From positions 864,001 through 928,000 of the forward strand of contig OZ252287.1 in NCBI GenBank assembly GCA_965250085.1: a DNA stretch of 64,000 nt. Direction: 5' to 3'. The DNA comes from Candidatus Altimarinota bacterium. Lineage in GTDB: Bacteria > Patescibacteriota > Gracilibacteria > CAIRYL01. The notes under the pieces are model-generated. The model was not told the DNA's origin. It saw only the letters and a list, made by a program, of their open reading frames with translations, and did not search any database. A program made the translations under genes and the position numbers. How positions within the stretch are numbered: position 1 is the first letter of the stretch; each line of letters begins with the position of its first letter. Shown here in pieces: positions 34,840 to 39,507 of the stretch.

Positions 34840-36024
34840 TTAAGATTCAAAATTCAAGTTGACCCTGAGCACGCGACGCGAACCACGATCTTCATGCCCA
34901 GCGTCAGGACTAGCCTCACCCGAATACATGTACCCATAGTGACAACCGGCATTTCGAGCACGCGAAGGATTTTTTCCACTTTCCACCCATATACTCATTT
35001 TTCTCTCAAACTGTTCTTCATTATTTACACGCTTATATTCACTTTTCAGATCAATAAGGCCTCGTTCTGAAAGAACTTGTACTCCATCAAGTATTTCAGT
35101 GGCATCACCTTTTACGACCACAGTTCTACCATCAGTATTGACATACGATATTCTCGTTGCCTGAGATCGAGCAGTATAGTAATTAAATCCCAAGGTTTCT
35201 TCAGGTGGTTCGGCACATCCATCTCCGACAACAAGTTGTCCCTCTTTATTGAGAAAATAAACCTGAGCTTGTTCCAGAGATTCCACGCCTGACAAAAAAT
35301 CAGGCATATTAGGGATAGCTCCTGCAATTTCTTCCCATGTTTTCAGTTGTCCTTTATATGTGCGATCTGCTTTAGAAAGGGCTTCATATTGCCTTGAAAG
35401 TGACACAAGTCTTGGGTCTTCAGGCAGAATATCTTCATCTTTTTCCACAGAATTTTCTCCAATACGAGCCTTTGCAATATCTTCACGAATGCTATGGACC
35501 ATAGCTTCGAAGAGAGCTGGTCCTTCTAAAATTGTATCTATCTTTCTTCCAAGCCATTCAAGATTGTGGGCGAACAGGTCGAGTTTTTCGGCTGCTTCTC
35601 CCGGCAAAGGTGAAAATCCTAAGAGTGTTGTGGGGTTATCGTGGTCATAATCAGCATATTGAGTATATTCACTTGATGATGATTGAAGATCCAGTGTCAT
35701 TCGAAAAAAGAAATCCCCTCTGCAATTTTTGATTACTGTTTCAAAAGGGGTTGATTCTTCTGGCGGAGAATCGTGTGAAAATGATTCGAATTGTCTTAAT
35801 TCCTCTAGTGCTTGAGCATGAGTAGCCATCATGCAGGATACAATTTGCTGTGTAATAGTGTCATACGAAGGTTCTTCTGGGGATGTTCCGAGTATTCCAA
35901 ATGTATATCCTGCAAGAGGGAGTGATCGTAAAAATTGCGAAATGACCTCTTCTATTTGTTGTCGCTCTTGATCTGGTGAAAGCGTTGGCGTTGCTGCTTG
36001 TACTGGAAGAATTTCTGTTGTCAT
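34840..36024 (-). CDS. Hypothetical protein; C-terminus resembles DUF4256
   Basis: DGCAEPP, EYKRV...SIWVES and terminal RGSRRVLRV; resemblance from memory only. Confidence 0.45.
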   Translation of the reverse strand: MTTEILPVQAATPTLSPDQERQQIEEVISQFLRSLPLAGYTFGILGTSPEEPSYDTITQQIVSCMMATHAQALEELRQFESFSHDSPPEESTPFETVIKNCRGDFFFRMTLDLQSSSSEYTQYADYDHDNPTTLLGFSPLPGEAAEKLDLFAHNLEWLGRKIDTILEGPALFEAMVHSIREDIAKARIGENSVEKDEDILPEDPRLVSLSRQYEALSKADRTYKGQLKTWEEIAGAIPNMPDFLSGVESLEQAQVYFLNKEGQLVVGDGCAEPPEETLGFNYYTARSQATRISYVNTDGRTVVVKGDATEILDGVQVLSERGLIDLKSEYKRVNNEEQFERKMSIWVESGKNPSRARNAGCHYGYMYSGEASPDAGHEDRGSRRVLRVNLNFES

Positions 36025-36151: not shown

Positions 36152-36538
36152 TTACACCGCTACCGCATCTCCTGCTCCTATAAAGAGTCGTACAATTGAG
36201 TATGAGAGCAGAATAATAATAATTCCTGCTCCTGCCCAAAGGAGAATCTTTTTTCCTTTTTCGGTGCTTTCTTCATTGCCCCCAGAGGTCACCATGAGGA
36301 CTCCCGCATAGATTACAAATACCACGGCAATGAGTCCTAGGAAGGTCAAAAAATAGTTAATAAAACTCACGACAGAATTTCTGAAGTCTCCGCCGGTCAC
36401 ATCTCTTGGCTTGTCTCCATCGCCTATGAGCTGTGCAGCCACATCTGCCTGAGGAATAAATCCCAAAAGGAGCCCTGCTGCAAGGAGAGTAAAGGCGATA
36501 TACCAAAATGTTTTATGGGAAAATACTCGTGCTTTCAT
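36152..36538 (-). CDS. 2-TM pilin-like protein, paralogue of 32931-33335
   Basis: NYFLTFLGLIAVVFVIYAGVLMVTSGGNEESTEKGKKILLWAGAG. Confidence 0.8.
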   Translation of the reverse strand: MKARVFSHKTFWYIAFTLLAAGLLLGFIPQADVAAQLIGDGDKPRDVTGGDFRNSVVSFINYFLTFLGLIAVVFVIYAGVLMVTSGGNEESTEKGKKILLWAGAGIIIILLSYSIVRLFIGAGDAVAV

Positions 36539-36613: not shown

Positions 36614-37486
36614 TTAGATTTCCACCAGCTTGAGGCCCACTGTTCCGAGCGAAATAACGCCAATTCCCATCCATTGCCATATGTTGAGTCTCTCGTTATA
36701 GAGGAAGTGAGAAAGGATTGTGGTGACCACAATGCCAGCAACTCCTATTGCTCCAACGATGCCCATAGGTCCCATGGTTCCAGCAAGTGTCAGTGCTCCC
36801 GTTCCGAGAAGTGTACTGCTGGAGATGAAAACAATTATCAGGAGTGTTTTGCGCGGAATCCGCTCTACTTTTTTTCCGGTAACAAGGTAGCGAGCAAATC
36901 CTAAAATAAGAACTGCAAATCCGATAAAAAGTTCCCAAAAGTATCCGGCGGCGAGTGGATTGGTTTGTCTGGCTACCGTCATGACCAAAAAAAATGCAAC
37001 ACTGCCAAATGCTGTTGAACCAAGCGCATACCACAGCCCGTGCCTTGTTCTCTTGTCTAAGTGAGACATGTGATGCTTTTGGAGAGAAAGATATGCCACT
37101 CCCGCCATAATCATCAGGGCAAACAAAAATTCTTTTAAAGAAACTGTTTCTTGTAAAAAAAGATATGCCCACAGAAAGATAAGAACCACGCGGCCACTCC
37201 CAATAGCAGTTGAAATCCCTACTGGTAAAAATCTTTGTGAGAGAAATCCTAAAAAAAGCGCTATTCCCCCCGTAGAAGCGGAAGCCGCGAGTATCGGCCA
37301 CGCAGCGAGTGTGCGGAATGTTTCTCCTTTTCCCACAAAAAAAATCAAAGGAAGCATGGTAATCCCCAAAGAAAGATTGCGATATATCGCGAGGGAAAGT
37401 GCGTCCATACTGCGTGCGTACTTTGTCAGAAAGACAAATTGTACTGAATACGACAACATGGAAAGAACAGAGAGAAAGAAAAACAT
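36614..37486 (-). CDS. DMT/EamA-family transporter
   Basis: About 10 TMs in two repeats (LFLQETV / FLYNERL). Confidence 0.75.
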   Translation of the reverse strand: MFFFLSVLSMLSYSVQFVFLTKYARSMDALSLAIYRNLSLGITMLPLIFFVGKGETFRTLAAWPILAASASTGGIALFLGFLSQRFLPVGISTAIGSGRVVLIFLWAYLFLQETVSLKEFLFALMIMAGVAYLSLQKHHMSHLDKRTRHGLWYALGSTAFGSVAFFLVMTVARQTNPLAAGYFWELFIGFAVLILGFARYLVTGKKVERIPRKTLLIIVFISSSTLLGTGALTLAGTMGPMGIVGAIGVAGIVVTTILSHFLYNERLNIWQWMGIGVISLGTVGLKLVEI

Positions 37487-38389: not shown

Positions 38390-39382
38390 ATGAATGATGC
38401 ACGCAAAACGTTTCGGAGCAAAATGTGGGATGTTCTCAGTCATCCTCAAAAACAGAATCCCGATAAAAAAGATGCGCTAAAAACACATCTTTGGGATGCT
38501 ATGGAGCATGGTCGAGGAGGGCTTGGACACTTTGTGAACACCTTTACATTTTTTCTCATTATTCTTTCGCTTGTCATTCTTCCTCTTGAGCTTATTCCTG
38601 CTCTTGAGAAATATCATATTTTTGCAGAAATTATTGAAATTTTTATTACTGCAGTTTTTACTGTCGAATACGCACTGCTGATCTACTCAGCCCCAAAAAA
38701 ATGGCATTATATTCTTTCCTGGTGGGGCATTATCGATCTGCTTTCCATCTTGCCGTATTATATTTCTCTCGCAAAAGTGAATTCTCAGGTTTTCCGATTT
38801 GTTCGCTTGCTCCGCGTTATCCGTATTTTGAAGATTGCACATATGAAGTCTGAAGAAGAAGTGGTTGATACTGTTCAAAAAAAATCAGAAAAGTTTCTTT
38901 CCCTTATGGATGGGGAATTTATTGAGAGAGTAGTAATGCAACATCCTTTTTTTCTTATTATTGGTCTCTTTGTTCCCCTGCTCTTAGGTGGTGGTGGAGT
39001 CTTGGTTCTGGCACTTGGAAACTTCCATCAAATCGCTCTCACTATTGGTTCCGTACTCTTTGCCTTTATGTTGTTGTTTCTTTATAAGGCATGGCTCGAC
39101 TATCACTATGATGTCATGTATATAACCAATAGGCGTATTATTTTTCAGAATGAACATATTTTCGGTCGCAGTCACAGCAATGTAGAGTTTCGAGATATTA
39201 CCAATATTCATCCTTCTCGCAGAGGCTTGTTTGCCTTTCTTCTTGGGTATGGTTCCCTTGTTCTCGAAACATCTTCCGATCAGAGCATCATTGAACACAA
39301 AAACATTCGCAAGCACCAGGAGGTTGCCAAATGCATCCATGAAAAATGTCATCTGCACAAAGGCACCATAAAGAATGGATAA
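38390..39382 (+). CDS. Voltage-sensor-like (S1-S4) domain fused to a 2-TM bacterial PH domain
   Basis: FTVEY (S2), IIDLLSILPYY (S3), RFVRLLRVIRILK (S4); then ITNRRII and LLGYGSLVLET (bPH_2-like); no TVGYG pore. Confidence 0.75.
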   Translation: MNDARKTFRSKMWDVLSHPQKQNPDKKDALKTHLWDAMEHGRGGLGHFVNTFTFFLIILSLVILPLELIPALEKYHIFAEIIEIFITAVFTVEYALLIYSAPKKWHYILSWWGIIDLLSILPYYISLAKVNSQVFRFVRLLRVIRILKIAHMKSEEEVVDTVQKKSEKFLSLMDGEFIERVVMQHPFFLIIGLFVPLLLGGGGVLVLALGNFHQIALTIGSVLFAFMLLFLYKAWLDYHYDVMYITNRRIIFQNEHIFGRSHSNVEFRDITNIHPSRRGLFAFLLGYGSLVLETSSDQSIIEHKNIRKHQEVAKCIHEKCHLHKGTIKNG

Positions 39383-39507
39383 TTCCTCCATGGAGAATTG
39401 CGACATATCTTTCGTTCCTTCGTTAGAATTTTGGGGATTATTTTTTCCTGCTTGCTTTGTGGGAGATTCTTTAAAAAAATTGATGTCGCAATTTGTCTTT
39501 TGTTTTT

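Follow-up and report, generated by a model that had tools for sequence, protein, structure and literature searches.

A pore-less, Kv-type voltage-sensor domain fused to a membrane-anchored bacterial PH domain in Patescibacteria

Voltage-sensing domains (VSDs, helices S1 to S4) that drive anything besides a P-loop pore are rare, and two reviews of the field list only eukaryotic non-channel cases, these being the voltage-sensing phosphatase (VSP), Hv1 and SLC9C1; no prokaryotic non-channel VSD protein is mentioned in the parts of these reviews available to us (PMC13661669, PMC10651576). Here we describe a protein encoded in a stretch of 64,000 nucleotides from a Candidatus Altimarinota bacterium (contig OZ252287.1; the whole stretch is called the window below), in which a pore-less VSD of the Kv-channel type runs into a hairpin of two transmembrane (TM) helices and a bacterial PH domain. 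An earlier note, made from the sequence alone, had proposed a fusion of this kind and did not know it as described. Indeed, no description of a VSD–PH fusion was found in the full-text literature searched (subscription journals and supplementary files lay outside its scope), and the databases name such proteins automatically as 'ion transporter' or 'voltage-gated potassium channel'. The principle of a sensor joined to a non-pore effector is already known from VSP, Hv1 and SLC9C1; it is the type of effector and the bacterial setting that are new.

The sensor half is most readily compared with the Kv channels (of the Kv4, Kv2 and Kv1/Shaker types), with which it shares S1–S4 sequence and fold, S4 charges R1–R4 plus K5 and a Phe/Glu/Asp centre, the motif FTVEY being identical in Kv4.3. 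Unlike these channels, however, the fusion protein is without S5-P-S6 and filter, and its S4 runs into the PH module and not into an S4–S5 linker. In overall plan it resembles Ci-VSP, in which a pore-less VSD passes from S4 via a short linker into a membrane-held cytoplasmic effector, and the model of its sensor superposes on the VSD of Ci-VSP (4g7v) with Z scores of 10.7–11.2. Where Ci-VSP has a PTEN-like phosphatase as its effector, the fusion protein has a bacterial PH domain that is non-catalytic and brings its own TM hairpin; moreover, the fusion protein is bacterial and its sensor lies nearer to the Kv channels in sequence. Hv1 is likewise a VSD protein without a pore domain. The fusion protein differs from it in adding two TM helices and a PH domain and in having no acidic residue in mid-S1, and the S4 of Hv1 carries three charges compared with five here.

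A further parallel is provided by SLC9C1, the sperm Na+/H+ exchanger, which is reported to place a non-channel membrane module under the control of a VSD within one polypeptide (PMC10620092); the sensor model matches its VSD (8pcz) at Z 10.2. SLC9C1 is, however, eukaryotic, it is a transporter that also carries a cyclic-nucleotide-binding domain, and its effector is unrelated. From the other side, the C-terminal half resembles YdbS/YdbT and DdE/DdF (bPH_2, formerly DUF304), for which the described topology is a pair of TM helices plus a PH domain in the cytoplasm (PMC8657885); an N-terminal voltage sensor is absent from the known members and present in the fusion protein. Finally, the homologues P0017 and P0019 (metagenome, 387 residues) consist of a pore-less, Kv-type S1–S4 with an arginine-rich S4 followed by a SpoIIE/PP2C (RsbU-like) domain. 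They share with the fusion protein the arrangement of a pore-less Kv-type VSD before a cytoplasmic effector and differ from it in that this effector is a SpoIIE/PP2C phosphatase, with no TM hairpin and no PH domain. From its domain content, this pair is possibly a bacterial voltage-sensing protein phosphatase; the words 'voltage', 'ion transport' and 'PF00520' are all absent from a 2025 survey of the distribution of bacterial PP2C domains (PMC12088040).

The two halves of the fusion protein

The gene is an open reading frame (ORF) of 330 codons plus stop, giving a protein of 330 amino acids. Its N-terminus is common to the homologues P0002 and P0003, which supports the start codon at 38390. 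Its parts, in window coordinates, are as follows.

38390..39382, + strand: whole gene, comprising VSD, linker, two-TM hairpin and bacterial PH domain (from the ORF and its translation)
38390..38515, + strand: residues 1–42, cytoplasmic N-terminal region with helices 4–17 and 26–40 (S0-like pre-S1 helix; from the models)
38516..38593, + strand: S1, residues 43–68 (model, alignment of 49)
38597..38689, + strand: S2, residues 70–100 (alignment of 49, with FTVEY aligned to human Kv4.3)
38699..38770, + strand: S3, residues 104–127 (model, alignment of 49)
38786..38854, + strand: S4, residues 133–155, helix 134–153 in the model (sequence, alignments, model)
38855..38914, + strand: cytoplasmic linker from S4 to the PH module, residues 156–175, helix 156–169 (model)
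38915..38947, + strand: PH strand beta-1 (178–184) and the HP junction motif, residues 176–186 (model, alignment)
38948..39109, + strand: TM5 (186–209), outer loop (210–213) and TM6 (214–240), into KxWLDxxYD (233–241) (model, alignment)
39110..39379, + strand: cytoplasmic PH strands beta-2 to beta-7 (242–307) and C-terminal helix 309–329 (model, alignment)

The Pfam profile Ion_trans matches residues 48–152 with an E-value of 5.4e-20 (72.1 bits, against a cut-off of 25), and the match spans only profile positions 3–112 of 241, which is to say S1–S4 with the pore half excluded. The same profile matches every one of the 49 proteins in our main alignment (A2), which are full-length members between 21 and 58% identical to the window protein. 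With an E-value of 5e-20 and conserved homologues, the identification of a sensor is, at the level of sequence, far beyond chance. In a sequence search of the PDB, residues 41–160 gave 49 matches at E ≤ 0.001, all of them voltage-gated K, Na or Ca channels and none an Hv1 entry; the best was Kv4.3 (E 2.9e-11), aligned through FTVEY, the S3 pattern IID..I.PYY and S4. Structural comparison gives a similar picture. The sensor model falls on Kv4.2 (7e7z) with Z 16.2 and a root-mean-square deviation (rmsd) of 2.0 Å over 129 residues at 28% identity, using an aligner independent of Foldseek, followed by the sensors of Kv2.1, Kv1.2, KCNQ, Nav and Cav, and Foldseek itself returns Kv1.3 and Kv2.1 at E of about 5e-6. 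As an observation in its own right, residues 48–185 of P0001, corresponding to the sensor half, match the phage family phrog_7872 (E 2.9e-14, profile 14–142 of 254), and therefore some phages encode VSD-containing proteins.

All of the motifs quoted in the earlier note are present in the 330-residue ORF. In S2 and S3 these are FTVEY (90–94) and IIDLLSILP (114–122), and in S4 the motif RFVRLLRVIRILK at residues 136–148 provides R136, R139, R142, R145 and K148 with a period of three, the pattern of Shaker-type R1–R4 plus K5. The charge-transfer centre of a VSD is made up of a Phe and a Glu in S2 and an Asp in S3. In the 49-member alignment the corresponding residues are strongly kept (F90 in 45, E93 in 46 and D116 in 46), as is the outer acidic residue of S2, E83 (40, plus Asp in 5). 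P122 is invariant, and S3 is the best-conserved helix of the sensor at 2.60 bits, while residues 1–42 are the least conserved region of the whole protein at 0.77 bits. S1 keeps S60 in 46 and P65 in 45 of the members; its residues 43–66 contain no Asp or Glu, the sole acidic residue being E67 at the outer end.

It is in the S4 charges that the family divides. The inner positions are well kept across the 49 members (R142 in 45, R145 in 47, K148 in 39 plus 4 with Arg), while R136 occurs in only 12 and R139 in 16, such that there is no basic residue at the first two positions in 37 and 33 of the members, respectively. Counted over the five positions, a full set of five basic residues occurs in 11 members; 3 members retain four, 29 retain three (R142, R145 and K148), 4 retain two and 2 a single one. 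In the ten members closest to the window protein, however, R136, R139 and R142 are invariant. The conservation of S4 charge, which the earlier note had made a touchstone of its proposal, thus holds for these three residues among the near relatives and for R142, R145 and K148 in the wider family, but not in the wider family for R136 and R139. In the window protein itself the gating-charge machinery is intact, and by sequence criteria the sensor looks functional.

What follows S4 is not a pore of the known kind. The stretch between the HP and YD motifs (residues 186–241) is 55–61 residues long in all 49 members, and 55–56 in 42 of them; in the model it consists of two helices joined by an outer loop of four residues (210–213), too short for a pore helix and filter to fit. 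Judged by these lengths and the modelled hairpin, no member of the family can hold a P-loop pore. The fusion protein has no T[VI]G[YF]G motif, in agreement with the earlier note's statement that the TVGYG filter is missing, and its sole GYG (286–288) sits in a strand of the cytoplasmic PH domain and not between membrane helices. In a search of the organism's own genome with Ion_trans_2, the fusion gene is not matched, and only one other gene, some 240 kb away, is. The models tell the same story, contrary to the possibility that the C-terminal half would fold as a pore. Among the 50 fold matches listed for the model built on the 49-sequence alignment, 49 fit the sensor or the PH part (rmsd 1.9–5.1 Å), none of these well-fitting channel alignments runs past model residue 200, and the only one to extend further is to Slo2.2, at an rmsd of 6.8 Å; no solved pore structure was matched to the TM5–TM6 hairpin among them.

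The PH part contains the motifs ITNRRII (245–251) and LLGYGSLVLET (284–294). The window protein on its own scores just below the Pfam thresholds, with 20.8 bits for bPH_2 over residues 244–313 (1.2 bits under the cut-off of 22) and 18.8 bits for bPH_3 (cut-off 23). At the level of the family, bPH_2 matches 28 of the 49 members at E ≤ 0.01 (best 5.1e-13) and bPH_3 matches 27. The assignment as a PH domain holds at that level because of these 28 matches to bPH_2 and because the models show a PH-like sandwich. Of the two profile matches foreseen in the earlier note, therefore, that to the N-terminal part of Ion_trans is unambiguous, and that to bPH_2 is sub-threshold in the window protein and positive in its relatives. 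In addition, PF03703 is listed in precomputed annotation on P0194, P0195 and P0198, and phrog_3707, a 'membrane-flanked domain', matches the fusion protein at 8.4e-4. Searches of the fusion protein against NCBIfam and PADLOC matched no family, and a sequence search of the PDB with the C-terminal module gave nothing better than E 0.33.

The fold comparisons are more informative, with PH-like matches to Lam6 (5yqr, Z 11.8–13.0), to 4tyz (Z 11.3–12.2) and to a bacterial PH domain (3hsa, Z 9.9–11.2). These alignments begin at model residues 146–166, ahead of the hairpin, which therefore interrupts the PH fold between beta-1 and beta-2. In other words, the order of two TM helices and then a bacterial PH domain, as the earlier note gave it, is right as far as the architecture goes but misses that the PH fold already starts before the hairpin, with the strand at 178–184. 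On the model, residues ~165–330 are a complete YdbS-like unit of beta-1, TM hairpin, PH sandwich and C-terminal helix. Within it T246, R249 and G288 are invariant in the alignment. A Thr and an Arg (Thr47 and Arg50 of PHb1) are reported to stabilise bacterial PH domains (PMC2817789); T246 and R249 have the same T-x-x-R spacing, their positional equivalence being inferred and not superposed.

With respect to the whole chain, AlphaFold2 gave a predicted local distance difference test score (pLDDT) of 79.7 and a predicted template-modelling score (pTM) of 0.57 from an alignment of 10 sequences, and 92.9 and 0.85, respectively, from the alignment of 49, in which both VSD and PH fold are modelled. 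The linker between them is poorly conserved in sequence (1.06 bits) and constrained in length, with 28–33 residues from R145 to E176 in 42 of the 49 members. The best-conserved stretches, alongside S3, are the two junctions at which the PH module meets the membrane interface. These are 176–186, GE..E..V..HP, at 2.47 bits (E176 in all 49, H185 in 45) and 233–241, KxWLDxxYD, at 2.81 bits.

Recurrence, origin and genomic setting

The fusion is neither a one-off nor a chimera of assembly, two outcomes which the earlier note had named as fatal to its proposal. The genome is a single contig of 1,368,807 bp, estimated to be 97% complete, and this, together with the recurrence of the fusion in many assemblies, rules a chimera out. 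A word-indexed protein search returned nine full-length homologues at 38–58% identity, one of which is named 'ion transporter [Candidatus Peregrinibacteria bacterium]', and an exhaustive search of 1.84 billion protein representatives gave 3585 matches at E ≤ 0.001, about 40 of which are proteins of 290–400 residues aligned over roughly residues 30–320. Among 121 sampled genomes of the class the fusion occurs in 18 (E ≤ 1e-20), each match spanning both halves; by family the counts are 1 of 4 in f1 plus the window's own genome, 4 of 6 in f2, 2 of 11 in f3 and 10 of 11 in f6.

A search for related loci was built on the smaller alignment A1, with patterns that reach close relatives only. In species-representative genomes it found the whole fusion at 19 loci (L014–L032), 18 of them carrying the label Peregrinibacteria or Peribacteria and the remaining one simply 'bacterium', and at these, at L003–L007 and at the window's own locus (L001) the hidden Markov models (HMMs) of both halves match one ORF. 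At 61 loci from other phyla (L033–L093), scored for these HMMs only, ORFs of 261–346 residues match the sensor HMM and not that of the C-terminal module. The nearest ESM-Atlas cluster has 60 members, all of which carry Ion_trans and 12% of which carry bPH_2; its commonest phylum is Candidatus Peregrinibacteriota and its automatic name is 'Ion transport protein domain-containing protein'. For the distant member P0034, which has three S4 charges, there is likewise a relative named as Peregrinibacteria. Wherever a member of the family bears a taxon name, it is Peregrinibacteria or Peribacteria.

A tree of 130 sensor domains places 47 of the 49 fusion sensors in one set with an SH-aLRT (approximate likelihood-ratio test) support of 95, the two outliers lying on long branches, and the sensors of P0017 and P0019 fall within the next supported set around this clade. 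The grouping of 47 of 49 fits a single origin, and the fusion probably arose once, in Peregrinibacteria-type genomes, as far as the tree and the taxonomic labels indicate.

The C-terminal module also occurs on its own. Used as a query, the window protein finds matches in 306 of 401 genomes of the phylum (the unpublished genome G154 being counted in this tally), frequently with more than one site in a genome, and most of the matches listed cover only ~130–220 to 300–325, within open frames of ~160–250 residues. Such stand-alone two-TM bPH proteins, of ~160–250 residues, are thus very common in the phylum, and the window's own genome encodes one of 208 residues (L002 1312..1938, − strand), found with the protein query and with the C-module HMM; a bPH_2 profile search of the same genome gave no match at E ≤ 0.01, this paralogue included. 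Two longer proteins also contain the module, namely one of 362 residues with the module at 143–300, ~2.7 kb downstream of a fusion gene (L032 8570..9658, + strand), and one of 318 residues with the module at 7–172 followed by ~146 further residues (L009 1048..2004, − strand). Several short, highly similar matches were rejected as stand-alone modules: P0056 and P0066 are the halves of one frameshifted fusion gene, the end of P0066 overlapping the start of P0056 in sequence, the split being either a sequencing error or a pseudogene, and P0040, P0047 and P0076 are fragments at contig ends. P0055 may be the only true stand-alone module among these matches.

The genes on either side of the fusion gene lie on the minus strand (a UDG-family glycosylase before it, a CoA-binding protein and pyrG after it), and the fusion gene therefore looks monocistronic, that is to say transcribed on its own. 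The sequencing runs listed for it, four from one study, include none recorded as RNA. A weak terminator-like feature follows it, and three further genes lie to its left.

39444..39466, + strand: terminator-like hairpin, 62 nucleotides past the stop codon (weak evidence)
36614..37486, − strand: EamA-family transporter, adjoining the next gene
36152..36538, − strand: membrane protein of 128 residues with a T4SS_pilin match (PF18895, E 8e-9)
34840..36024, − strand: ORF of 394 residues, no Pfam match at E ≤ 0.001

Terminator-like sites near the fusion gene are not above chance, 2 sites being present where shuffled sequence leads one to expect 1.4. Neighbourhoods were counted over 24 loci (L001, L004–L007 and L014–L032, with L003 left out as a duplicate of L016); at 3 of these a greedy ORF filter had dropped the fusion ORF in favour of antisense ORFs, and the HMM search places it there. 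The Peribacteria loci have an HD/HD_assoc (HD/dGTPase-like) gene upstream on the same strand (17 of the 24 loci) and an M23 peptidase downstream on the opposite strand (15 of the 24). The window locus shows no synteny with the Peribacteria loci.

What the sensor may control

Support for the architecture and for its recurrence is firm, and a voltage-sensor mechanism for the S1–S4 half is probable. The reading that we favour, with a confidence a little above even, is that the fusion protein is a sensor of membrane potential in which movement of S4 switches the state of the PH module, such that it reports on the energisation of the membrane and is not an ion channel. A change in membrane potential would move S4; the S4-linker helix would then pull on beta-1 as well as on the conserved junctions where the PH domain meets the membrane interface, and this pull would switch the PH module between states that might differ in conformation, self-association or the binding of a partner. 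The fusion would, in this way, be a voltage-controlled version of the stand-alone two-TM bPH proteins that are found in most genomes of the phylum.

Several considerations weigh against such a role. With all five S4 charges in 11 of the 49 members only, the gating charge would be smaller in most of the family, and S1–S4 folds that do not sense voltage exist, as in TRP and CNG channels. The high pTM of the model points to a defined arrangement of the chain but does not demonstrate electromechanical coupling. Furthermore, the PH module lacks a catalytic motif and any known ligand, and the output step is therefore pure inference; nor is there a conserved functional partner near the fusion gene across the 24 loci, the neighbours being all of housekeeping type.

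The foremost alternative, which we regard as unlikely, is that the fusion protein is a new kind of voltage-gated conduit, in which the PH domains form a ring, the TM5–TM6 hairpins surround a central pore of non-P-loop type that would pass ions or small peptides, and the VSDs gate it from the periphery. There are precedents in the published accounts of related proteins. Xu et al. 2010 found ring-shaped PHb oligomers with C5 and C12 symmetry and put forward the hypothesis that the membrane-bound PHb families, including DUF304 (bPH_2), are transporters or pores (PMC2817789), and Perez-Ramos et al. 2021 report that export of a leaderless bacteriocin depends on DdE and DdF, which are YdbS/YdbT-like (PMC8657885). 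The conservation of TM5 and TM6 is, moreover, close to that of S2 and S4, at 1.8–1.9 bits. That conservation does not, however, extend to any charged residue in either helix, the frequent residues being hydrophobic or small, and the absence of a solved pore structure among the matches to the hairpin also speaks against a conduit. A prediction of a complex of four copies of residues 160–330, using alignment A2, scored 0.00 and gives no verdict either way on self-association. A little less likely again is the full form of the idea, in which a ring of hairpins would be a pore, the fusion would be the first voltage-gated non-P-loop conduit, and a channel or exporter role would follow for all membrane-bound bacterial PH proteins, YdbS, YdbT, DdE and DdF among them.

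The VSD might instead conduct by itself, either along an Hv1-like proton path or as a physiological gating-pore (omega) current, in which case the PH module would only anchor or assemble it. Pore-less VSDs that conduct are known in the form of Hv1. The first two S4 positions are non-basic in most of the family, VSDs lacking S4 charges are reported to give gating-pore currents (PMC10651576), and by analogy such currents might in principle flow in the many relatives without the outer pair of charges. Against this, the window protein retains each of the five charges, as well as F90, the residue of the hydrophobic plug. The selectivity of Hv1 needs an Asp in mid-S1, and the only acidic residue of S1 here is E67, at the outer end; in addition, the PDB sequence matches of the sensor are without exception to Kv, Nav or Cav channels. 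We therefore give this possibility a low probability. Indeed, where the earlier note had left the choice between a sensor of membrane potential and a proton conduit, it is the sensor that is the better supported, and the non-acidic core of S1, the intact F90 and the Kv-like character of the domain tell against the proton conduit.

There is a similarly small chance that the S1–S4 bundle no longer senses voltage and serves as a structural membrane scaffold, or is the remnant of a channel that has lost its pore. Non-sensing S1–S4 domains do exist in other families, and most members of this one have lost the outer S4 charges. However, the residues of the charge-transfer centre and the inner charges are conserved among members that are only 21–58% identical, R136, R139 and R142 are present in ten out of ten of the window's own subfamily, and the family, whose linker is constrained in length, is both old and diverse.

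That the VSD acts in trans, as a detachable sensor for a separate pore-only channel, is highly improbable and was rejected: although the fusion gene carries the only VSD of a genome that also encodes one pore-only K+ channel (254 residues, TLGFGD filter, no VSD), the two genes are ~240 kb apart and do not co-occur across the 121 genomes of the class, the pore protein being matched in 4 of the 18 with the fusion (2 of them weakly) and in 33 of the 103 without it. This channel (L094 1495..2259, − strand; C1:662977-663735 of the own genome, outside the window), found in 37 of the 121 genomes, has a soluble N-terminal region of ~150 residues before its two-TM pore and is the genome's only other channel-type gene.

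Significance for the bacteria and for the PH family

If the fusion protein is a sensor of membrane potential as we favour, then voltage sensing has served as a general signalling input in prokaryotes, and a single chain of 330 residues would offer a small system in which to study electromechanical coupling. The fusion also gives a handle on the membrane-bound bacterial PH proteins, whose function is largely obscure. Were the sensor to regulate the module, the activity of the latter would presumably be tied to the energisation of the membrane, and this fits the reported link of such proteins to membrane-active peptides (PMC8657885). Were the conduit reading true instead, it would explain the whole family of membrane-bound bacterial PH proteins, which is present in most of the Patescibacteria genomes searched. 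For the organisms themselves, which are tiny bacteria with genomes of ~1–2 Mb, the fusion may be a means of reading their own membrane voltage without a channel.

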